This document shows positions 19,078 to 64,000 of a stretch of 64,000 bases of DNA, piece after piece. A program made the position numbers and the translations under genes. The notes below the pieces were generated by a model that saw nothing but the letters and a program-made list of their open reading frames with translations, searched no databases and was not told the origin of the DNA. The stretch is from NCBI GenBank assembly GCA_964410395.1, contig CAYPGS010000009.1, positions 6,038-70,037 on the forward strand. Reading direction: 5' to 3'. Origin of the DNA: an uncultured bacterium (GTDB lineage: Bacteria > Krumholzibacteriota > Krumholzibacteriia > JACNKJ01). Numbering within the stretch: the first letter of the stretch is position 1; every line of letters begins with the position of its first letter.

Positions 19078-19089
19078 GGGCAGAATGAA

Positions 19090-19131
19090 CCCGTCTGGAC
19101 ATCAAGCATATCGACTTGATTTCCAGACGGG
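19090..19131. terminator. bidirectional terminator hairpin between convergent genes (10-bp stem CCCGTCTGGA / TCCAGACGGG with inner ATCAAG/CTTGAT stem)
   Basis: Inverted repeats read in sequence; T-rich tail on minus-strand side (ttcattctg). Confidence 0.55.
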
Positions 19132-19147
19132 TTCCAATAGTGGATCC

Positions 19148-25556: not shown

Positions 25557-25584
25557 TTCCGGCCAGAACCCCCGCTTGAAAAAA

Positions 25585-25613
25585 CCCGGGTCCTGAGGGC
25601 CCGGGTTTTTTTT
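25585..25613 (+). terminator. rho-independent terminator (CCCGGG...CCCGGG + T8)
   Basis: aaaaaaCCCGGGtcctgagggCCCGGGtttttttt; marks left edge of lower-GC island. Confidence 0.8.
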
Positions 25614-30509: not shown

Positions 30510-30573
30510 ACACTGTACTTAGCAATGAGCCGGCCAAATGTAAAGTAGAAATGCATTTGGCGGCAAAGCAAAA

Positions 30574-30600
30574 GGGCCAAAAGCGCCTGGCTTTTGGCCC
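30574..30600 (-). terminator. terminator hairpin for ferritin gene (GGGCCAAAAG-7nt-CTTTTGGCCC, U-rich tail on minus strand)
   Basis: 10-bp perfect stem; minus-strand RNA continues TTTGCTTTG. Confidence 0.5.
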
Positions 30601-30627
30601 AATTGCTTGCTATTCAGCGAGTTAGCT

Positions 30628-43843: not shown

Positions 43844-44515
43844 TTAGATGGCCTCCTGAACCTGGCTCCGGAGCTCCTTCTTGAACTCCTTGGGGAAGAT
43901 CTCCCCGTGATTGATCCACACCTTCACGCCCACCGTGCCGAAAGTGGTGATGGCCGTGGCGGTGTTGTAATCGATGTCGGCGCGCAGGGTGTGGAGGGGA
44001 ACCTCGCCCTCGCGGTAGAGCTCGGTGCGGGCGATCTCGGCGCCGTTCAGGCGGCCGGAGCACTGCACCTTGATGCCCTTGGCGCCCATGCGCATGGCGG
44101 AGGTCAGGGCCTTCTTCATGGCGCGCTTGAAGCTGACGCGTCCCACGAGCTGGTCGGCGATGTGCTCGGCCACCAGCTTGGCGTTCAGTTCGGGGCGCTT
44201 CACTTCCTTGATGTTCAGGAAGACCTGCTTGCCCGTCAGATGCTTGAGCTGATCGCGGAGCAGATCCACCTCGGCGCCCTTGCGGCCGATGACGATGCCC
44301 GGCCGGGCCGTGTGGATGTTCACCGTGACCTTGCCCTTCTGGCGCTCGATGGCCACGCGGGCGATGCCGGCCCTGGAAAGACGGCGGTTGATGAAGCGAC
44401 GGATGGTGATGTCCTCGTTCAGCCAGTCCGCGTACTTCTTCCCGCCGAACCAGCGGGAGTTCCACGTCTTGATGATTCCGAGCCTAAAGCCTGTGGGATG
44501 AGTCTTCTGACCCAA
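43844..44515 (-). CDS. rpsC: 30S ribosomal protein S3
   Basis: [23 protein letters not shown]... KH domain. Confidence 0.93.
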
Positions 44516-44526
44516 AACGGTCCTCC

Positions 44527-44868
44527 TTATTCGGCGACTACCACGTGGATGTGGGTCGTCCGCTTACGGATGCGAAAAGCGCGTCCCTGGGCGCGAGGGC
44601 GGATCCGCTTCATGGTCGGACCCTCGTTCGCGTAGATTTCCTTGACCACCAGGCTGTCCACGTCGACGGGATTCTCCTCGTCGGACAGGTGCAGGGCGTT
44701 GGCGGCAGCCGACTGCAGCAGTTTGTAAACCGGCTGCGCGGCCTTCTTGTTCATGTGCTTCAGCATCTCCATGGACTCGCTCACGTTCCGTCCACGAACC
44801 AGGTTGATGACCTGGCGCGCCTTGCTCGGCGAGATGCGAATGAATGTGGCGCTGGCCTTTCCAGCCAT
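44527..44868 (-). CDS. rplV: 50S ribosomal protein L22
   Basis: [37 protein letters not shown]... Confidence 0.92.
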
Positions 44869-44917
44869 GACAAACCTCCAAGAGCCGGCGAGCGATTACG
44901 CGCGCCCGGCCCGCTCT

Positions 44918-45181
44918 TTAGTCCTTTTTCCTGTGACCCCGGAAGGTCCGGGTCGGCGCGAACTCACCCAGCTTGTGACCCACCATGTTCTCGGTCACGT
45001 AGACGGGGATGAACTTGTTGCCGTTGTGGATCGCGACGGTGTGTCCCACGAACTCCGGAGAGATCGCGCTCCGACGCGCCCAGGTCTTGATGACGGTCTT
45101 GTCTCCCGACTCGTTCATCTTCTCGAGCTTGCCCAGAAGGCGCTCGTCAATGAAGGGGCCCTTCTTGAGGGAACGTGCCAA
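44918..45181 (-). CDS. rpsS: 30S ribosomal protein S19
   Basis: [23 protein letters not shown]...[32 protein letters not shown]. Confidence 0.93.
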
Positions 45182-45198
45182 AGTCCCTTCCTCCTCGT

Positions 45199-46029
45199 TT
45201 ACTTGCCGTAGCGGCGGCGGACGATGAACTTGTCCGTGGCCTTGTTTCTGCGAGTCCTGAAGCCCTTGGACGGCTGTCCCCAGGGAGAGACGGGATGCCC
45301 GCCGCCCGAGGTCTTGCCTTCTCCGCCGCCCATGGGGTGGTCCACCGGGTTCATGGCGACGCCGCGCACCTTGGGACGCTTGCCCAGCCAGCGCGAGCGG
45401 CCGGCCTTGCCGGACACCACGTTTTCGTGATCCAGATTGCCCACCTGTCCCAGAGTCGCGTAGCAGTTCTGGTGCACCAGGCGCACCTCGCCGCTGGGCA
45501 GGCGCATGTGGGCGTATTCGCCGTCCTTCGCCATGAGCTGGGCGTAGGCGCCGGCGCCGCGGGCCATCTGTCCGCCCTTGCCGATGCGAAGCTCGATGTT
45601 GTGCACCAGGCTACCCGTGGGGATGCTCCGAAGGGGCAGCGCGTTGCCGGTGCGGATCTCGGCCTCGGGTCCGGCCAGCAGGCTGTCGCCCACCTTCAGG
45701 CCGTTGGGCGCGATGATGTAGCGCTTCTCGCCGTCGGCATAGAGCAGCAGGGCGATGCGCGCCGAGCGGTTCGGATCGTACTCGATGGTCTTGACCGTCG
45801 AGGGGATCCCCGCCTTGTCGTGGCGCTTGAAATCGATGCGACGGTACTGGCGCTTGTGGCCACCGCCGCGACGACGCATGGTGATCCGTCCCTTGTTGTT
45901 GCGGCCGCCGCTCTTCTTGAGGGGCTCCATGAGGGACTTCTCGGGCTTGTTCGTCGTGATCTCAGCGAAGTCCGAAACCGTGCGGTAACGCAGGGTCGGT
46001 GTCTTCGGCTTGAACTTCTTGATACCCAT
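45199..46029 (-). CDS. rplB: 50S ribosomal protein L2
   Basis: 276 aa; ...[21 protein letters not shown]... Confidence 0.95.
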
Positions 46030-46040
46030 GACGGTTCTCC

Positions 46041-46328
46041 CTAGAGCTCACCGACGATGTCGATGCTGTTGCCTTCGGCCAGCGTGACGACGGCTTTCTT
46101 CCAGTCGGGGCGCTTACCGCTGAAGCGGCCCATGGTCTTGATCTTGCCCCGGACGTTCATGGTCCGGACGTCTTCCACGGTGACCTTGAACATGGTCTCG
46201 ACGGCGCGCTTGATCTGCGGCTTGTCGGCCTTGCGGTCCACCTCGAAGACGTACTTGTTCTCCGCCATGAGCGCGCTCGTGCGCTCGGTCTGCAGAATGC
46301 GGCGGATGGTCTGGTGCAGGTCGCTCAC
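46041..46328 (-). CDS. rplW: 50S ribosomal protein L23
   Basis: ...[37 protein letters not shown]... Confidence 0.9.
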
Positions 46329-46954
46329 GATCCGAACACCTCCTTGACCTGCTCCAGCGCGGAGGAGGTCATCACGATCTTGTCGGCCCAGAGCACCTGG
46401 TAGGCGTTCAGTTCGCGGCCGACGATGAAGTCGAGGTCGCGCACGTTGCGGGCGGACTTGCTGATGTTGATGTCGTAGTCGTCCATGACCAGCAGGACCT
46501 TGCTGCCGGACACGCCCATCTCGCCGAGAACGCCGGTGAAGGCCTTGGTCTTGGGCTCGTCCATGCTGAGGTCTTCGATGACCAGGACATTGCCCTCCGA
46601 GGCGCGATCGCTCAACGCGGCGAAGAGGGCCTTCCTGCGGGCCTTCCGGGGCATCTTGTAGGAATGATCCCGGGTCTTGGGCCCGAAGGCGGTACCGCCG
46701 CCGACGCGCGTGGGCGACTTGGCGGAACCGGCGCGGGCGCGGCCCGTGCCCTTCTGGCGGTAGAGCTTCGCGGTGGAGCCCGTCACCTCGGAACGATCCT
46801 TGGTGTGGGCAGTGCCGGAGCGCTGGTTGGCCAGGTAATTCCTGACGGCCTCATAGAGCAGGTGCCCGTTGACTTCCTGGCCGAAGATCTCGGCCGGAAG
46901 ATCGGTGCTTCCCTTGCTCTTGCCGTTCGCGTCGTAAAGCGTTGCGTTCGCCAT
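46325..46954 (-). CDS. rplD: 50S ribosomal protein L4
   Basis: ...[48 protein letters not shown]... matches L4 (not L3). Confidence 0.92.
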
Positions 46955-46989
46955 TTCGACTCCCGTCTATCCTTGTCCGGGCTCTGGCC

Positions 46990-47301
46990 TCAGACCTTGA
47001 TCTCGATGTCCACGCCCGCCGGCAGGTCCAGCTTCGTCAGCGCGTCCAGGGTCTGGGGGGATGATTTCGTGATCTCGATGAGGCGCTTGTGGATGCGCAT
47101 CTCGAACTGCTCGCGGCTCTTCTTGTCCACGTGGGGCGAGCGCAGCACGGTATAGAGGCTGCGCTGCGTGGGCAGCGGGATGGGTCCGGAGATCTCGGCG
47201 CCGGTCCGCTTGGCGGTGCGCACGATCTCGAAGGCGGACCTGTCCAGCGTCGCGCTCTCGTAGGCCTTGAGCCTGATCTTGATCTTCTGGCCAGTGTACA
47301 T
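46990..47301 (-). CDS. rpsJ: 30S ribosomal protein S10
   Basis: [45 protein letters not shown]... Confidence 0.93.
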
Positions 47302-47370
47302 TCTTGCTCCTCTTTCGGTCGGCTACTCCAGCATTTCCGTCGTTCGCGGAATCTGCTCGCCTGTCGATTT

Positions 47371-47437
47371 AGCTACCAGCTTCCAGCTACCAGCGACCAG
47401 CTTCTTGCTGGCGGCTGGCAGCTGGCTGCAGGCGGCC
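47371..47437. repeat. CCAGCTN-heptamer inverted-repeat hairpin element, copy B (immediately 3' of tuf stop)
   Basis: AGCTACC AGCTTCC AGCTACC AGCGACC AGC - TTCTT - GCTGGCG GCTGGCA GCTGGCT GCAGGCGGCC; near-identical to copy D1 at 63642-63705. Confidence 0.85.
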
Positions 47438-47439
47438 TT

Positions 47440-48630
47440 TTACTCGTTGATCTTCGTCACCACGCCGGCGCCCACCGTGCGGCCGCCTTCACGGATCGCG
47501 AACCGAAGGTTCTCCTCCATCGCGATCGGCGTGATCAGCTCAACGTCCAGCTTAACATTGTCACCGGGCATCACCATCTCCGTGCCCTCAGGCAGCGTCG
47601 CAACACCCGTCACGTCCGTCGTACGGAAGTAGAACTGGGGACGGTAGCCCTGGAAGAAGGGAGTATGACGGCCGCCCTCTTCCTTCGTCAGGATGTAGAC
47701 CTCGCCCTCGAACTTCGTGTGAGGCGTCACGCTGCCAGGCTTCGCCAGCACCATGCCGCGCTCCAGGTCGCTCTTCTCCACGCCGCGAAGCAGAAGGCCC
47801 ACGTTGTCGCCAGCCTGGGCATCGTCCAGAAGCTTGCGGAACATCTCAACACCGGTCACCGTCGTCTCGAGCGTGTCACGGATGCCGATCCGCTGGACCT
47901 TGTCGCCCACCTTCACCACGCCGCGCTCGATACGGCCCGTGCCCACCGTGCCGCGACCCGTGATCGAGAAGACGTCCTCGACCGGCATCAGGAAGGGCTT
48001 GTCCGTGTCCCGCTCAGGCTCCGGAATGTAGCTGTCGATCGCTTCCAGAAGCTCGTCGATGCTCTTGTTTGCCGCATCGTCCTCAGGGTTGTTCAGGGCC
48101 TGAAGCGCGCTGCCCCGGATGACCGGAATGTCGTCGCCCGGGAACTCGTACTCGCTCAGAAGCTCGCGAACCTCGAGCTCCACCAGGTCCAACAGCTCTT
48201 CGTCGTCAACCTGGTCCACCTTGTTCATGTAGACCACCATGTAGGGAACGTTCACCTGACGACCCAGCAGAACGTGCTCGCGGGTCTGGGGCATCGGGCC
48301 GTCGGCCGCGCTCACCACCAGAACCGCGCCATCCATCTGAGCCGCACCCGTGATCATGTTCTTCACGTAGTCGGCGTGACCCGGGCAGTCAACGTGAGCG
48401 TAGTGACGGTTCTCCGTCTGGTACTCCACGTGAGCCGTCGCGATGGTGATGCCGCGCTCGCGCTCCTCAGGAGCCTTGTCGATCTCGTCGAAGGGCGTGA
48501 ACTCGGCAAGGCCCTTGGCGCCCTGACGCTGAGTGATCGCCGCCGTCAGCGTCGTCTTCCCGTGGTCAACGTGACCGATCGTACCCACGTTTACGTGCGG
48601 CTTTGTCCTCTCAAACTTCTCTTTCGCCAT
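47440..48630 (-). CDS. tuf: elongation factor Tu (str-operon copy)
   Basis: 396 aa; [32 protein letters not shown]... Confidence 0.97.
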
Positions 48631-48660
48631 GGCGAATCGACCTCCTGTAGGGTCTCGGTT

Positions 48661-50733
48661 TTACTGGGCCGTCACAAAGCGGCTTGCGATACTCGATGGC
48701 ACTTGCTCGAAATGCGAGAACTGCATCGAAAAGGTGGCCCGCCCCTGCGTGAGCGAGCGCAATTTCGTCATGTACCCGAACATCTCCGAAAGAGGGACCG
48801 TCGCATCGACGATCTGGGCATCCGCCCTGGGGGCCATTCCCGCCACTTTCCCGCGGCGGGCGTTCAGGTCCCCGATGACCTCCCCGGTAAAATCTCCGGG
48901 CGTTACGACCTCCACGCTCATGACCGGCTCGAGAATCATCGGCTCGGCGCCCCTGGCGGCTTCGCGGAAGGCCAGGGCCCCCGCGGCGTGAAAGGCCTGT
49001 TCAGAGGAGTCGACCTCGTGGTGGATGCCTGCCAGGAGCTCCACCTTCAGGTCAGTCATCTCGTATCCGGCGATGACTCCGGAGGCCGTGGCCTCCCTGA
49101 CCCCTCTCTCCACGGCGGCGACGAAATCCTTGGGGAGATCGTCACCGTCCAGCCGGTTCTCGAACTGGATCCCGTCGCCGGTGGCGGCGGGTTCCACGGC
49201 CAGGGTCACTTGGGCGAACATTCCCTGGCTTCCGGCTGTGCGCTCGAAGCGCAATTCCTTCTCCGCACGTTTGGTCACCGACTCGCGGTAGACCACCTGC
49301 GGCTTTCCGACGTTCGCCCCCACGTTGAACTCCCGGAGCATTCGGTCCAGGAGGATCTCCAGGTGCAGTTCGCCCATCCCGGAGATCAGGGTCTGGCCCG
49401 TGTCCTTGTCGACGCGGACCTTGAAAGTCGGGTCTTCCTCGGCGAGGCGTCTGAGCGAGTCGTCGAGCTTCTCCTGATCGGCCTTGGTCTTAGGCTCGAT
49501 GGCGATGTCGATGACCGGCTCCGGAAACTCCATCCGCTCCAGCAGCATGGGCTTCTTGGGATCCGTGAGCGTGTCGCCCGTCCGGACTTCCTTGAGCCCC
49601 ACCACCGCGGCGATGTCTCCCGCCAGAACCTGCTCCACTTCCTCACGCTTGTTGGCGTGCATCCGGAGCAGCCGGCCCATCCTCTCCTTGCGTTCCGTGG
49701 CGACGTTCAGAACCTGCGCCCCGGATTTCAGCTGACCGCTGTAGACCCTGATGTAGGCCAGTTTCCCGGCGAACGGATCGTTGGCGATCTTGAAGAGGAG
49801 AGCCGCGAAAGGCTCGTCCACCGAGGCCTTCCGGCTCACCGTCTCCTCCCGGCCGGGCTTGATGCCCTCCACCGCCGGAAGGTCCAGAGGGCTGGGCAGG
49901 AACTTCACGATCCCGTCCAGCAGGGGCTGGATCCCCTTGTTTCCCAGAGCCGATCCGCAGAACACGGGGATGATCTCCACCGTCAGCGTTCCCTTTCGGA
50001 TGGCCCCCCGAAGCAGCTCGCCGTCGAGCTCGCCGCCCTCGAGGTAGGCCTCGGCCACTTCGTCGTCGAAGTCCGCCAGGGCCTCGATGAGCCGGGTGCG
50101 GGCCTCTTCGGCCTCGGCCTCCGACTCGGCGGGGATGTCGGCGATGCGATACTTGGCGCCGAGAACATCCTCGTCATAAAAGAGCGCTTTCATTTCCACG
50201 AGGTCGATGACCCCCCGGAAAGCGTCCTCGCTTCCGATGGGAAGCTGGACCGCGACGCCGTTGGCCCCAAGACGCTCCCGGATCGCTGTGAGCACGGCGT
50301 CGAAGTCGGCGCCTATCCGGTCCATCTTGTTGACGAAGGCCAGACGCGGGACCCGGTAGCGGTCGGCCTGCCTCCAGACCGTCTCGCTTTGAGGCTCCAC
50401 GCCGCCCACGGCGCAGAAGACGGCCACCATGCCGTCCAGGACCCGCAGGCTTCTCTCCACTTCCATCGTGAAATCGACGTGCCCGGGGGTGTCGATAATG
50501 TTCACACGATGGTCGAGCCAGTCGCAGCTCGTGGCGGCGGAGGTGATGGTGATCCCCCGCTCCTTCTCCTGCTCCATCCAGTCCATGGTCGCGGCCCCGT
50601 CGTGGACCTCTCCCATGCGATGGATGATTCCGGCGTAGTAAAGAATCCTCTCGGTGGTCGTCGTCTTACCGGCATCGATATGTGCAGCGATGCCGATGTT
50701 GCGTATTCGATCGATGGACTCTTTCTTCGCCAT
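48661..50733 (-). CDS. fusA: elongation factor G
   Basis: Start set at ATG complement 50731-50733 ([33 protein letters not shown]...); ORF-track start 50880 reads through the upstream hairpin and is rejected. Confidence 0.93.
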
Positions 50734-50739
50734 GGCCCT

Positions 50740-50804
50740 AAAAAAACCCCTCCTGAGACCCTTCGACTTGTACATAGTCCTGCAGTCAAGGGTCTCAGGA
50801 GGGG
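50740..50804 (-). promoter_or_regulatory. terminator-like RNA hairpin in rpsG-fusA spacer: perfect 15-bp stem (CCCCUCCUGAGACCC ... GGGUCUCAGGAGGGG), 28-nt loop, then U7, ending 6 nt before fusA AUG; the 3' arm contains AGGAGG
   Basis: Plus-strand arms 50747-50761 and 50790-50804 are exact reverse complements; A7 at 50740-50746 (U7 on the minus-strand transcript). Confidence 0.6.
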
Positions 50805-50920
50805 TTTCCCTTTCGGGACCTTTTCCTGCAGGTATCGTCCTCCGGCGGTTCGGCCCGTCGATACTTGGGGCCTCGTTCACCGCTGCCGGCGGCTATGTAA
50901 GGGTCTTCCTTTCCTAGAGA

Positions 50921-51391
<471 letters not shown>

Positions 51392-51409
51392 CGTTTTCCT
51401 CTGCTAGCC

Positions 51410-51794
51410 CTATTTCTTGGGCTTCTTGGTTCCGTACTTGGAGCGACGCTGTCCGCGTCCGTCCACTCCGCTGGTATCCAGGGCGCCGCGCACGATGTGG
51501 TACCGCACGCCGGGGAGGTCCTTCACTCGGCCTCCGCGCACCAGGACGATGGAGTGCTCCTGGAGATTGTGTCCCTCACCGGGAATGTAGGCCGTCACCT
51601 CGATGCCGTTGGTCAAGCGCACGCGCGCGACCTTTCGCAGCGCGGAATTGGGCTTCTTGGGCGTCGTCGTGTAGACCCGGGTGCAGACGCCCCGACGCTG
51701 CGGATTGCTCTGCAGGGCCGGCGACTTGCTCTTCTTCTTGATGACCTTGCGGCCATTCCGGATCAACTGATTCAGGGTCGGCAATCCAACTCTC
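51410..51794 (-). CDS. rpsL: 30S ribosomal protein S12 (likely TTG start)
   Basis: Conserved S12 begins ...[24 protein letters not shown]...; TTG at complement 51792-51794 with AAGGAG 6 nt upstream; ORF-track ATG 51877 adds a non-conserved 27-aa extension. Confidence 0.85.
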
Positions 51795-51897
51795 CTTGAG
51801 ACCGCGCACCCCGCCTTAGGGCTTTTTGCCCAGACGTAATGCCTTGCCGTGTAAGTAGTTAACGCAAGGTGGGCCAAGCAGGGCGCACAAAGAACCG

Positions 51898-51926
51898 AAA
51901 CTACTCGATAGGCCCTTGTTTGTCAA
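51898..51926 (-). promoter_or_regulatory. putative str-operon promoter TTGACA-17nt-TAGTTT on minus strand
   Basis: RC of 51921-51926 = TTGACA; RC of 51898-51903 = TAGTTT; located between rpoC terminator element and rpsL. Confidence 0.4.
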
Positions 51927-51942
51927 CCCGTTAGGGAATAAA

Positions 51943-52011
51943 AGCTACCAGCTTCCAGCTGCCAGCTACCGGCCAGAATCCGGCTGGGAGCTGGTTGCTG
52001 GCGGCTGGCCG
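51943..52011. repeat. CCAGCTN-heptamer inverted-repeat hairpin element, copy C (immediately 3' of rpoC stop)
   Basis: AGCTACC AGCTTCC AGCTGCC AGCTACC GGCC - AGAAT - CCGGCTGGGAGCTGGTTGCTGGCGGCTGGCCG. Confidence 0.85.
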
Positions 52012-56226
<4,215 letters not shown>

Positions 56227-56240
56227 GCTTTCCTCCTCGA

Positions 56241-60041
<3,801 letters not shown>

Positions 60042-60079
60042 AATGACCTCCGGCGGTCGCTTACGGTGAAGGCACGGAA

Positions 60080-60111
60080 CCCGTCCGGGCGGCAATGCCC
60101 CCCGGACGGGG
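60080..60111 (-). promoter_or_regulatory. GC-rich hairpin (10-bp stem CCCGUCCGGG/CCCGGACGGG) in rplL-rpoB spacer, candidate attenuator
   Basis: Inverted repeat read directly; weak U-tract; position analogous to the known rplL-rpoB attenuator of E. coli. Confidence 0.4.
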
Positions 60112-60144
60112 TCCTATCGACAAAAAAGAGGAATCGAGAGCTTC

Positions 60145-60525
60145 TTACTTGATTTCGACAAGCGCTCCCACTTCCTCGAGCTGGGTCTTGATACCCTCGG
60201 CCTCGTCCTTGGAGGCACCCTCCTTGACGGCCTTGGGCAGTCCATCGACCAGCTCTTTGGCTTCCTTCAGGCCCAAGCCGGTGATGGCGCGCACCACTTT
60301 GATGACCTGGATCTTCTTGTCGCCGGCGCCGTTGAGCATGACGTCGAACTCGGTCTTCTCTTCGGCGGCCGCTTCGCCACCGCCCGCGGGCATGGCGGCA
60401 ACGGCCATGGCGGGAGCGGCAGCGCTCACGCCGAACTTGTCTTCGATGGCCTTGACGAGCTCGGAGAGCTCCATGACGGTCAGTTCCTCAACCTGGGAAA
60501 CCAACTGTTCGATCTTCTCAGACAT
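60145..60525 (-). CDS. rplL: 50S ribosomal protein L7/L12
   Basis: [33 protein letters not shown]... Confidence 0.93.
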
Positions 60526-60591
60526 GGTTTCTTGCTCCTCTATTCACCTGCGGTTTGAACCGCTCTGTTACCTGTTGAGCTGGCGGGCGGC

Positions 60592-61113
60592 CTAAGCGGC
60601 TTCGCCCTTCTGCTTCGCCAGCTGGTCGATGACGTTCGCGAATCCCTGGATGTTGGCGTTGAGCACGCGCGCAAAGCCGCTGATGGGAGCCTGCAGGGTC
60701 CCGGCGACCATTCCGAGCAGCTCTTCGCGACTGGGCATGTCGGCGAGGGCCTTGACGCCGTCCTCGTCGATGACCTGCCCATCCACGTAGCCCGCCTTCA
60801 TGGTGAGCTTCTGGAATTCCTTCTGGAAATCCTTCAGCACCTTGGCAGGCGTGGAATAGTCCTCGCTGTAGGCCAGCGCGGTGGGACCGACGAAGTGATC
60901 GTCGAGACCCTCCATGCCGACTTTCTCGGCGGCGCGCAGGAGCAGGGTGTTCTTGATGACCCGGAAGGTCACACCCGACTCGCGGCAGCGCTTGCGCAGC
61001 TCGGAGATCTCCTCGACGTTGATCCCCTTGAAGTCGCAAAGGACGACGCTGTTGGCGCTTTCCAGTTTTCCGGCGATTTCTTCGACCAGCGCGATCTTTT
61101 CAGGCTTTGGCAT
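60592..61113 (-). CDS. rplJ: 50S ribosomal protein L10
   Basis: ...KIALVEEIAGKLESANSVVLCDFKGINVEEISELRKRCRESGVTFRVIKNTL... Confidence 0.92.
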   Translation of the reverse strand: MPKPEKIALVEEIAGKLESANSVVLCDFKGINVEEISELRKRCRESGVTFRVIKNTLLLRAAEKVGMEGLDDHFVGPTALAYSEDYSTPAKVLKDFQKEFQKLTMKAGYVDGQVIDEDGVKALADMPSREELLGMVAGTLQAPISGFARVLNANIQGFANVIDQLAKQKGEAA

Positions 61114-61145
61114 GGTCTATCGCCCCTCTCTCTTGAAAACGGACT

Positions 61146-61844
61146 CTACTTGGCCGCGGTCAGTTCGGACTCTGCGATGCGAATGGAAGGACCCATGGTC
61201 GAGCTAAGGAAAGCCGACTTGAAGTACTTGCCTTTCGCGGAGGCCGGTTTGACGCGCAGCAGCTCCTGGATCAATGTTCGGATGTTGTCTTCCAGCTTCG
61301 ACGCTTCGAAGGATGCCTTGCCCACGGACACGTGGACGTTGGATCCCTTGTCAACGCGGTATTCAACCTTACCCGCCTTGACTTCCTGAACCGCCTTGCC
61401 GACGTCCTGAGTAACGGTTCCGCTCTTGGGGTTCGGCATCAGGCCCTTGGGGCCAAGCACCTTACCCAGGCGTCCGAGGTCCTTCATCATGTCGGGCGTC
61501 GTGATGATGACGTCCGTGTCGGCCCAACCGCCCTGGATCTTTTCGATGTACTCGTCGGCGCCGACCATGTCGGCTCCGGCTTCCTGGGCGGCCGTGGCGT
61601 TGTCGCCACGAACCAGGGCCAGCACCCGGACTGAGCGTCCGGTGCCATGAGGAAGGACCACCGTACCGCGCACCATCTGGTCCGCGTGACGGGGATCCAC
61701 GCCAAGCTTTGCGGAGACCTCTACCGTTTCGTCGAATTTCGCCTTGGACATGCTCCGAACAAGCTCCACCGCCTCACTGAGGGTGTAGGCGGACGTCCTG
61801 TCCCGGAGAGTGGCGCTTTCGCGGTAATTCTTCCCACGCTTCAT
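61146..61844 (-). CDS. rplA: 50S ribosomal protein L1
   Basis: [43 protein letters not shown]... Confidence 0.93.
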
Positions 61845-61968
61845 CGTGATTCCTAACGATCAGCTTGGTCCGATACTCTTAGTTAACAGAGGGACAAAAC
61901 CGGTGGCTGAGAAGCGTGCTTCCCGCCCTCCAGCCGGGAAACCGTACCATCCGATTTTATATTGAAGG

Positions 61969-62403
61969 CTAGCCTTCAACCTCGATGCCCATGCTGCGAG
62001 CGGTGCCCGCGATCATGAGCATGGCGTTCTCTACGTTCGCCGCGTTGAGGTCCGGCGCCTTCAATTCCGCTATCTCGCGGAGCTGCGCGCTGGTCACCTT
62101 GCCAACCTTGTCGCGGTTGGGTTCACCCGAGCCCTTCTCGATGCCGGCGGCCTTGCGAAGCAGCACGGCGGCGGGAGGAGTCTTGGTGATGAAGGTGAAG
62201 CTGCGGTCCGCATACACGGTGATGACCACGGGCGTGATCATCCCCTGGGCGTTCTGCGTCTGGGCGTTGAAGGCCTTGCAGAACTCCATGATATTCACCT
62301 GATGCTGTCCCAGGGCGGGGCCCACGGGCGGGGCGGGATTAGCCTGTCCGCCGGGAATCTGCACCTTGATCTGAGCGATCACTTTCTTCTTGGGCTTGGC
62401 CAT
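61969..62403 (-). CDS. rplK: 50S ribosomal protein L11
   Basis: [41 protein letters not shown]... Confidence 0.93.
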
Positions 62404-62433
62404 TCTAAATGCTCCCGTTCTTTCGTCCTGGGC

Positions 62434-63240
62434 CTAGAGGGGTTCAACCTGGAGGAAGTCCAGTTCCACAGGCGTCTCCCTGCCGAAGATGGTCACCATG
62501 ACTTTCAGAGTTCCTCGCTCCTGGTTGACCTCGTCGACGATGCCGTTGAAATCGCTGAAGGGCCCGTCCATGACCTTCACGTGGTCGCCCACGTGATAGG
62601 GAATCTCGGTGGGCTTGTGCTCCGCGGGCCTCTCGATGCGCCCCAGAACCCGATCCACTTCGGCCGGACGCAGGGGCACCGGACGGCGGGACGGTTCGCG
62701 CGGGTCCAGACCCACGAAGCTCGTCACGCCGCTGATTCCATTGACGAGGTGATAGGCCTCGTCGCACATCTCCATCTCGACCAGGATGTAGCTCGGGAAG
62801 TACTTCCGCGTGGCGGTCGTCTTCTTCCCCTTCTTCATCTCCGTCACCTCTTCGGTGGGGATGAGAACCTGGCCGACCTTGTCCTCCATGCCCTCCAGGG
62901 CCACCCGGCGAAGCAGGTTTGTGCGCACCTTGTTCTCGTGTCCCGAGTAGGTGTGCACGGCGTACCACTTCAGCTTCGGGTTGCGAGGCGCTTCGGGCTG
63001 CTCGGGCACGGCCGCGGGCAGTTCCTCTTCGACCTCGTCGGAATCCTCTTCCTCGTCAGCCTCCGCTTCGACCTCCGCCGCCTCGAGAGTCTCCTCCTCG
63101 GCGGTTTCGGTTTCGTCCTTCTCGGGCTCGACGACCTCTTCGACCTCGCCCCCTCCCGCGAAAGGATTCTCAACGGGAGCGGAAGCCTCGGGCGCGACGC
63201 CTTCGGCTTCGGAAGCTATGTCCTTCTCCCGCTCTTCCAT
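62434..63240 (-). CDS. nusG: transcription termination/antitermination factor NusG with ~85-aa acidic N-terminal extension
   Basis: NGN + KOW core (...KLKWYAVHTYSGHENKV... ...HVGDHVKVMDGPFSDFNGIVDEV...) preceded by E/D-rich low-complexity region. Confidence 0.92.
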   Translation of the reverse strand: MEEREKDIASEAEGVAPEASAPVENPFAGGGEVEEVVEPEKDETETAEEETLEAAEVEAEADEEEDSDEVEEELPAAVPEQPEAPRNPKLKWYAVHTYSGHENKVRTNLLRRVALEGMEDKVGQVLIPTEEVTEMKKGKKTTATRKYFPSYILVEMEMCDEAYHLVNGISGVTSFVGLDPREPSRRPVPLRPAEVDRVLGRIERPAEHKPTEIPYHVGDHVKVMDGPFSDFNGIVDEVNQERGTLKVMVTIFGRETPVELDFLQVEPL

Positions 63241-63871: not shown

Positions 63872-64000
63872 TTATTCGTTGATCTTCGTCACCACGCCGG
63901 CGCCCACCGTGCGGCCGCCTTCACGGATCGCGAACCGAAGGTTCTCCTCCATCGCGATCGGCGTGATCAGCTCAACGTCCAGCTTAACATTGTCACCGGG
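63872..64000 (-). CDS. tuf: elongation factor Tu, second copy (C-terminal end only; continues past window)
   Basis: 63877-64000 is nucleotide-identical to 47445-47568 (3' end of the str-operon tuf); stop codon TAA at complement 63872-63874. Confidence 0.9.

Follow-up and report, generated by a model that had tools for sequence, protein, structure and literature searches.

A pseudoknotted RNA with a terminator-like hairpin in the rpsG-fusA spacer of Krumholzibacteria-related bacteria: a candidate attenuator leader within the str operon

The window analysed here, a 64,000 nt stretch of contig CAYPGS010000009.1 (assembly GCA_964410395.1) from an uncultured bacterium of the Krumholzibacteriota, harbours the genes rpsL, rpsG, fusA, tuf and rpsJ, encoding ribosomal protein S12, ribosomal protein S7, elongation factor G (EF-G), elongation factor Tu (EF-Tu) and ribosomal protein S10, in that order, as identified by NCBIfam equivalog models. 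The 187 nt spacer separating rpsG from fusA (50920-50734, minus strand) contains a long, terminator-like hairpin, which an earlier note, made from the sequence of the window alone, had described as an element that might attenuate transcription of fusA or sequester its Shine-Dalgarno (SD) sequence. Comparison with related bacteria indicates that the hairpin is the 3' module of a larger, pseudoknotted RNA, which is interpreted here, with moderate confidence, as a lineage-specific, cis-acting attenuator leader for fusA-tuf that responds probably to a translation component such as S7.

The spacer between rpsG and fusA

The features of the locus are given below in the direction of transcription, with predicted helices numbered P1 to P4 and the predicted pseudoknot designated PK1.

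51898-51926, minus strand: promoter-like TTGACA-17 nt-TAGTTT upstream of rpsL (TTGACA at 51926-51921, TAGTTT at 51903-51898)
50921-51391, minus strand: rpsG (ribosomal protein S7, 156 aa; TIGR01029, 206 bits), with its UAG stop at 50923-50921
50907-50915, minus strand: purine-rich box AGGAAAGGA, just 3' of the rpsG stop; sequence comparison finds a similar box in most relatives
50899-50906, minus strand: A-box AGACCCUU, with complementarity to AAGGGUCU in the distal P4 3' arm
50891-50897, minus strand: CAUAGCC motif, nearly invariant, at the 5' edge of the core (alignments A2 and A3)
50839-50892, minus strand: P1 (CC.CCGGCAG / C.CGCCGG.GG), enclosing P2 (GGCCC at 50872-50868 / GGGCC at 50856-50852)
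50832-50864, minus strand: pseudoknot PK1, between the P2 loop GUAUC (50864-50860) and GAUAC (50836-50832), 3' of P1
50825-50832, minus strand: J-box CCUGCAGG, which can pair with CUGCAG of the P4 loop (50785-50780)
50807-50818, minus strand: P3 hairpin UCCC-GAAA-GGGA, with a GNRA tetraloop in most lineages
50743-50807, minus strand: P4 hairpin, with an almost invariant base (ACCCCUCCUGAG / CUCAGGAGGGG) and a distal stem that varies with compensation
50773-50775, minus strand: in-frame AUG in the P4 loop, taken by gene callers as the start of a 704 aa EF-G and not a real start
50749-50753, minus strand: SD-like GGAGG in the P4 3' arm, paired with CCUCC, 15 nt upstream of the fusA AUG
50740-50746, minus strand: U7 tract directly 3' of P4, the terminator tail
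48661-50733, minus strand: fusA (EF-G, 690 aa; TIGR00484, 1023 bits), with its AUG at 50733
48630-47440, minus strand: tuf, downstream of fusA

The P4 hairpin has perfectly paired arms of 15 nt, CCCCUCCUGAGACCC on the 5' side (50804-50790) and GGGUCUCAGGAGGGG on the 3' side (50761-50747), and these arms, together with a run of seven U residues ending six nucleotides before the fusA AUG, lie exactly where they had been placed within the 187 nt spacer. The description of a 15 bp stem closed by a 28 nt loop proved incomplete, as perfect complementarity extends over 20 nt (AAACCCCUCCUGAGACCCUU / AAGGGUCUCAGGAGGGGUUU), forming the longest 100% inverted repeat within the 64 kb window, and is followed by a one-base bulge and four additional pairs, making a stem of ~24 bp overall. 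The formal loop between the perfect arms, 24-28 nt in length, itself folds further to leave an apical loop of 6 nt. The minimum free energy of the hairpin, -46.7 kcal/mol, compares with -19.4 +/- 2.9 kcal/mol for 200 dinucleotide shuffles (z = -9.4), none of which was as stable, and the structure is far beyond chance.

The 20 bp stem ends in GGAGGGG and is immediately succeeded by U7, the combination of a G+C-rich stem and U-rich tract expected of an intrinsic terminator; the earlier impression of a strong terminator inside the str operon is therefore borne out, given the 20 bp stem with its four further pairs, the U-tract and the stability of the fold. A consensus terminator scan did not report P4, because it permits only loops of 3-8 nt. 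Downstream of the U-tract, the hexanucleotide AGGGCC (50739-50734) separates it from the AUG at 50733, such that 13 nt lie between the end of P4 and the start codon.

Other long, near-perfect inverted repeats are found in the window at 25579-25611, 19087-19134 and 30566-30608; one of these, AAAAAACCCGGGTCCT/AGGGCCCGGGTTTTTT, resembles a bidirectional terminator, and the two further hairpins have arms of 19-20 nt. These repeats indicate that the organism uses canonical terminators. In addition, most relatives carry a recurrent YGUGYG-like motif (GUGCG or GUGUG) in the apical loop of P4 (~50779-50764), and a conserved UGUGCGCC is found just downstream of the str promoter, in the 5' untranslated region (UTR) of rpsL (~51885-51875); the two may represent a shared protein site, or a chance resemblance in a G+C-rich genome.

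The 3' arm of P4 also includes the AGGAGG that had been proposed as a sequestered SD sequence, and it is indeed paired with CCUCC in the 5' arm. These CCUCC/GGAGG pairs are invariant in all 15 of the sequences compared below. However, the spacing of the GGAGG is not that of a functional SD sequence: in 14 of the 15 sequences its distance to the AUG is 15-18 nt, the exception being L111 at 11 nt, whereas the AGGAGG-type SD sequences of neighbouring genes in the window are 5-10 nt from their start codons (rpoC 5, rpsL 7, rpsG 5, tuf 10 and rpsJ 5 nt). Sequestration of an SD sequence by the hairpin is thus a weak proposition, and a purely translational operator, in which an anti-SD sequence would hide the fusA SD, is barely credible as an explanation of the element, despite the invariance of these pairs, the use of AGGAGG-type SD sequences by the organism and the persistence of the hairpin where the U-tract is degenerate, as it is contradicted by the distance to the AUG and by the position of the single-stranded, U-rich tail and the AUG itself outside the stem.

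Conservation and distribution of the fold

Relatives were gathered through exact-protein look-ups and an EF-G homology search, and their contigs were then compared. The EF-G identities of these relatives form a series of 100, 93, 92, 91, 87, 76, 72, 71, 70 and 67%, of which the 76% relative is named Candidatus Krumholzibacteria by one source and the 87% relative (P0006) stands outside the DNA comparison. A pattern scan of metagenome contigs contributed three more distinct members, as well as ten unrelated hairpins. The comparison set comprises 15 distinct sequences with EF-G 67-100% identical.

In every relative recovered the element is present between the S7 and EF-G genes, once per locus, and the spacer at this junction is 168-189 nt long. 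Because the spacers of the relatives align over their entire length, the hairpin can be recognised as the last module of a larger RNA. The core of this leader is ~156 nt long (50898-50743), and with the A-box and the tail it fills the entire 187 nt spacer. The notion of a stand-alone hairpin consequently does not hold, only about a third of the element having originally been noticed.

The helices differ in the manner in which they are preserved. P1 is 96% paired, and six of its nine pairs are changed on both sides in some sequence, while for P2 the paired fraction is 97% at the two outer positions and 78% at the three inner ones. All 75 alignment cells of PK1 are paired, with one pair occurring as C-G in eight sequences and U-A in seven, and another changing from U-A to C-G in two; this pseudoknot was absent from the covariance model that built the alignment. 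P3 is 98% paired, its fourth pair being C-G, U-A or A-U, and its loops include GAAA, GCAA, GAGA and GUGA. A comparison of relatives' spacers for conservation and compensation, suggested when the hairpin was first described, favours P4 likewise: a stem of about -40 kcal/mol is found in 15 of 15 sequences, 97.8% of its cells are paired and six pairs are changed on both sides, the compensatory changes falling in the distal stem, which takes such forms as GACCC/GGGUC, GAUUC/GAAUC, GGUCU/AGACC and GAUCU/AGAUC. Runs of at least six U residues follow P4 in 10 of the 15 sequences, including the most distant, the outgroup L126.

The same conclusions emerge whether or not structure guides the alignment. 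When 14 spacers are aligned with MAFFT, without reference to structure, pairing is seen in 96.1% of cells, compared to 36-51% when the partners are slid by 1-3 columns; 13 pairs are changed on both sides, and none of 500 shuffles reaches the observed values. The covariance-model alignment, with 15 sequences, gives 96.6% paired cells and 18 pairs with changes on both sides. These alignments show an RNA with a conserved predicted fold comprising P1, P2, PK1, P3 and P4, succeeded in most lineages by a U-tract. Two further pairings are less clear. The J-box and the P4 loop share five invariant pairs and one A-U to U-G double change, the latter seen in four sequences of one lineage, making this interaction a weak candidate for either a second pseudoknot (PK2) or the outer helix of an antiterminator. 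P5, in which GGUCC would pair with GGRCC just before the AUG, is a possibility: it is 85% paired, exhibits only one-sided changes and is lacking in four lineages.

The covariance model, R1, has a single match in the 64 kb window (169 bits) and finds the element in L126, the most distant relative recovered (123 bits), yet it did not find the element in 80 S7/EF-G loci of other phyla. These served as negative controls and derive from a scan of a genome collection with S7 in which, among the matches listed, only distant phyla were represented, at no more than 61% identity. When the whole window was searched against Rfam at gathering thresholds only a tRNA matched, and the spacer alone, at E values of up to 10, returned only sub-threshold miRNA-hairpin noise; membership of a known RNA family was accordingly rejected at both gathering and permissive thresholds. 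A dispersed repeat or mobile element of the REP or MITE type was also rejected, as neither a pattern search nor the covariance model detected a second copy in 64 kb, and as the element is found at the same orthologous junction in all relatives, with compensatory changes. The element thus appears to be confined to a Krumholzibacteria-related clade, and its predicted structure to lie outside any described family.

Strong hairpins trailed by U5-U7 shortly before fusA also occur in the spacers of L005 and L016 (Zixibacteriota/Zixibacteria) and L006 (Gemmatimonadota). In L005 the layout of hairpin, U6, six nucleotides and AUG is that of the window, with unrelated sequence, and model R1 has no match to the pre-fusA hairpins of any of the three. 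A stop or structure before fusA may be a recurrent solution across FCB-related phyla.

Read-through, alternative pairings and rival explanations

An attenuator at this position presupposes a transcript that arrives from upstream. The spacer between rpoC and rpsL contains a promoter-like sequence in which TTGACA is invariant across 11 aligned spacers and the arrangement TTGACA-17 nt-TAnnTT is conserved, suggesting that the str operon has its own promoter upstream of rpsL; this is the likely source of the transcript reaching the leader. A scan for sigma-70-like sites reported none in 44000-63000, and the same scan overlooks the str promoter itself, which has a weak -10 box. A separate fusA promoter after the hairpin was rejected, there being no room for one in 13 nt. 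As only these 13 nt separate P4 from the AUG, fusA, presumed to be essential, must be reached by read-through.

The remainder of the rpoC-rpsL spacer (51785-52011, minus strand) falls into two parts. The first is highly variable, with short tandem and inverted repeats and a terminator-like hairpin and T-run (e.g. 51966-51947); the last, a 5' UTR of ~115 nt, is conserved and contains hairpins (CCUUGC...GCAAGG and GGGC-AAAAA-GCCC). It may represent another leader, one of the rpsL-leader type discussed below, and is dissimilar to that of fusA.

The 13 nt distance depends upon the start codon of fusA. EF-G residues 1-687 align to positions 1-686 of the NCBIfam equivalog model, for the 690 aa form of the protein, and because this alignment includes the very first residue, 50733 is taken as the position of the true AUG start. 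The 704 aa EF-G beginning at the AUG at 50775 was rejected, as this start is unconserved, the proteins of relatives being called as 690 aa or from a different GTG, and as the model begins at residue 1 of the short form. EF-G is similarly over-called by 13-14 codons in public assemblies (P0001, 704 aa; P0004, 703 aa; L081-L090 and L095-L097), from an in-frame ATG or GTG within the hairpin loop, the frame being open across the stem and U-tract. As the start is unconserved and the first position of the EF-G model coincides with the AUG further downstream, this extension is an annotation artefact. A conserved upstream open reading frame in the P4 loop was considered and rejected, the frame being lost in L105.

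Two peculiarities of the downstream genes were also evident. The tuf gene (first copy at 47440-48630) is duplicated, with the last 42 residues of a second, protein-identical copy cut by the window end (63875-64000, minus strand) upstream of rpmG-tRNA-secE-nusG. This repeat accounts both for the metagenome contigs of relatives often being ~15.4 kb in length and breaking at tuf, and for the joining of fusA-tuf to rpmG-secE-nusG in some assemblies (L095, L098 and L102). In the S10 operon, rplC (L3) is missing from its usual place, such that on the minus strand rpsJ (47301-46990) is followed by rplD (L4, 46954-46325) and then rplW, rplB and rpsS, as identified with Pfam; the order without rplC is repeated in relatives (L092, 5942-6918; L109, 5647-6649).

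How transcription might pass P4 is suggested by predicted pairings that compete with it. When transcripts are truncated at the P4 loop, nearly all lineages adopt the same predicted antiterminator fold, in which CCUGCAGG pairs with the loop sequence CUGCAGG, GGUC on the 5' side of P3 with GAYY of the P4 5' arm, and AGGG with CCCU. This candidate antiterminator is mutually exclusive with both P3 and P4. It is compatible with 91.9% of alignment cells, compared to 38-55% for slid controls, and every substitution in the P4 5' arm retains pairing with the invariant GGUCC, via G-U or U-G. The conservation of the antiterminator pairing is suggestive rather than proven.

The A-box provides a candidate partner for the P4 3' arm in a read-through (ON) fold. 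In most lineages the two are predicted to form duplexes of -15 to -27 kcal/mol, the A-box sequences differing between lineages and tracking the variable distal stem, and shuffle p-values, one per lineage, combine by Fisher's method to ~1e-4, a figure to be read in the light of the lineages not being independent. Folding with the antiterminator imposed as a constraint releases the 3' arm, which in 12 of 15 sequences then pairs with the A-box region. This ON fold is disfavoured by 12-28 kcal/mol relative to the terminated (OFF) fold, as would be expected for a kinetic choice made during transcription. Collectively, the truncated folds, the antiterminator alignment and the A-box point to a switch in preference to a fixed stop, and the near-invariance of the 11-12 bp base of P4 suggests overlapping pairing constraints like those on riboswitch switching sequences. 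Attenuation, as first proposed for the hairpin alone, hence remains plausible in view of the promoter upstream of rpsL, the 13 nt gap and the conserved alternative pairings, with the amendment that the hairpin is not the whole element.

A two-state mechanism can be proposed on this basis. Transcripts originating upstream of rpsL would have to pass P4 to reach fusA-tuf. During synthesis, the P3 region and J-box would pair with the 5' arm and loop of P4 to form the antiterminator, whereupon the 5' A-box would capture the P4 3' arm, allowing read-through. Were the sensor domain stabilised, with P1, P2 and PK1 formed and P3 closed, the 5' arm of P4 would be left free, the far more stable P4 would form and transcription would terminate at the U-tract. 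In the sub-clade that lacks a good U-tract, the hairpin might instead limit the access of ribosomes. As the element occurs at a single locus in a ribosomal-protein operon, and as S7 controls EF-G synthesis in Escherichia coli, the leading guess for the effector is feedback by a translation component, S7 being the first candidate and EF-G the second, in preference to a metabolite.

Several points count against this model. Support for the antiterminator is mostly invariant or one-sided (G-U), with a single doubly compensated pair, and the complementarity of the A-box is lacking in L101, L102 and L111. One sub-clade (L105, L107, L109, L111 and L115) has a degenerate U-tract, with 3-4 U's among the first 8 nt after P4, and keeps the full structure along with the alternative pairings. 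As this sub-clade retains the full hairpin of ~-40 kcal/mol, termination cannot be the sole conserved role of P4; with five U-poor sequences possessing the whole structure, it may be neither the ancestral nor the only output, and in these bacteria the hairpin perhaps affects ribosome access or RNA stability rather than causing canonical termination. More generally, termination, read-through and any regulation are deduced here from sequence, nothing ties the RNA to S7 specifically, and so strong a terminator could act as a fixed partial stop. Mimicry of rRNA was not demonstrated by a comparison made by eye with E. coli rRNA sequences: resemblances to the sarcin-ricin loop, helix 8 of the signal recognition particle RNA, the S7 site of 16S rRNA, and h45 with the anti-SD tail were rejected, as they fell in lineage-variable positions or were too short.

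The best-surviving rival, though an unlikely one, is that the element is a constitutive internal attenuator and/or a processing or stability element, whether a fixed leaky terminator, an RNase III-type target or a 3' stabiliser of the rpsL-rpsG message. It would maintain a constant ratio of S12 and S7 to EF-G and EF-Tu, in the manner of the partial terminator that separates rplL from rpoB in E. coli, with the upstream fold serving as a scaffold and nothing being sensed. Such an arrangement would be in keeping with the very strong, perfect stem of ~24 bp, with an OFF fold far more stable than any alternative, and with the unrelated hairpins and U-tracts before fusA in L005, L016 and L006, which suggest a generic need at this junction. 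However, a fixed terminator would have no use for a pseudoknotted domain of 100 nt, with its GNRA hairpin and its invariant unpaired motifs, or for covariation between a 5' box and the 3' arm, and the 11-12 bp stem base is so nearly invariant as to suggest the overlapping constraints of a switch.

Rather less likely is a dedicated sensor that sets the synthesis of EF-G and, downstream, EF-Tu in response to a signal other than S7, either EF-G itself or a guanine nucleotide or alarmone bound at the PK1/P3 domain. Such an element would be the first known fusA-specific riboregulator, with a new aptamer or protein-binding fold, and the ACCCCUCCUGAG / CUCAGGAGGGG duplex would then be part of a recognition or switching surface and not an SD mask.

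Next in order, and improbable, is a small-molecule or ion riboswitch, in which P1, P2, PK1 and P3 would constitute an aptamer for a translation-linked metabolite (e.g. a guanine nucleotide or alarmone) and P4 the terminator platform. The compact pseudoknotted fold with invariant junction nucleotides, placed ahead of a terminator with candidate antiterminators, has the appearance of such a system, and as no known class matches it would be a new one. Metabolite riboswitches, though, usually control several transport or biosynthesis genes, whereas this element is found at one locus type only, before fusA, once per locus, and its location within a ribosomal-protein operon is typical of protein-binding leaders.

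It is very improbable that the spacer instead encodes a separate, trans-acting small RNA, derived from the 3' UTR of the rpsL-rpsG mRNA, with P4 as its terminator. A structured RNA of ~180 nt with a strong terminator, directly 3' of a highly expressed gene, could be so interpreted, yet the U-tract has been lost in a sub-clade that retains the RNA, in every case fusA starts immediately past the element, 9-16 nt from the stem, the space beyond the terminator is too short for a fusA promoter, and nothing suggests a target seed region. The attenuator leader is preferred to each of these rivals.

Comparison with known systems

Internal or leader terminators are familiar in operons of this kind. In the E. 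coli S10 leader, subject to L4-mediated, NusA-dependent attenuation, and the Bacillus subtilis infC-rpmI-rplT leader, with its L20-dependent termination, protein binding favours the terminator hairpin, the S10 leader also affecting translation. Like the element described here, these are leaders of ribosomal-protein operons with an intrinsic terminator hairpin; unlike it, they are located at the 5' end of the operon instead of internally, and their structures are unrelated. The intergenic attenuator between rplL and rpoB in E. coli, which is partial, is regarded as largely constitutive and lowers downstream expression, is similar in being an internal terminator that has to be read through within one operon for translation and transcription, but it is without a conserved, pseudoknotted, sensor-like domain. 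Terminator-type riboswitches resemble the element in having a sensor-like structured domain, terminator and antiterminator helices (the latter a candidate here) that exclude one another, and switching sequences under strong conservation; by contrast, no known class matches the element, and its single context in a ribosomal-protein operon argues for a protein effector.

The str operon is itself under the control of S7 in E. coli, where the protein, by binding in the rpsL-rpsG intercistronic region, represses its own synthesis and, through coupling, that of EF-G (PMC3616713, PMC10931766). Both this operator and the RNA of the window are structured RNAs inside the str operon. The E. coli operator, whose fold links the upstream stop to the downstream start, limits synthesis of S7 and, by coupling, EF-G; it lies upstream of rpsG and acts on translational coupling, whereas the RNA of the window is 3' of rpsG and carries a terminator. 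The rpsL-rpsG gap is 18 nt in the window and 15-64 nt in relatives; the ~100 nt structured RNA between rpsL and rpsG that typifies the E. coli operator is absent from the window, where a gap of only 18 nt leaves no possibility of one.

A closer parallel is the 'multiform rpsL-leader' of Naville and Gautheret (PMC2965389), a collection of predicted terminator-type attenuators of the str operon that have candidate antiterminators and share neither sequence nor structure. The present element corresponds to these in its operon, in its single locus, in its presumed feedback by S7, in its premature intrinsic terminator with candidate antiterminator pairings and, in the streptococcal case, in its junction; its location fits, with P4 ending 13 nt before the fusA AUG inside rpsL-rpsG-fusA-tuf. 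Both are predictions from sequence. The two differ in that there is no kinship of sequence or structure between them, and in that the large pseudoknotted domain and strong covariation are found only in the element of the window. The survey by Eckert and Weinberg, which assembled 20 ribosomal leader candidates, includes none for S7 or EF-G.

Present understanding of str operon control is limited to E. coli, with its S7 site between rpsL and rpsG, and the question has been little studied outside the Gammaproteobacteria. The element adds a covariation-rich RNA of ~156 nt from an uncultured phylum, directly before fusA, with an explicit two-state model. Such a leader could be synthesised and tested in vitro with recombinant S7 or EF-G, both encoded adjacently, with no need for culturing. 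It is also of value for annotation, in view of the over-calling of EF-G in several public assemblies, and the covariance model built here could seed an Rfam family where none exists. Under the preferred reading as an attenuator leader, the element would function like the known attenuator leaders inside ribosomal-protein operons, and in this sense it is not conceptually surprising; it is as a structure that it is new.

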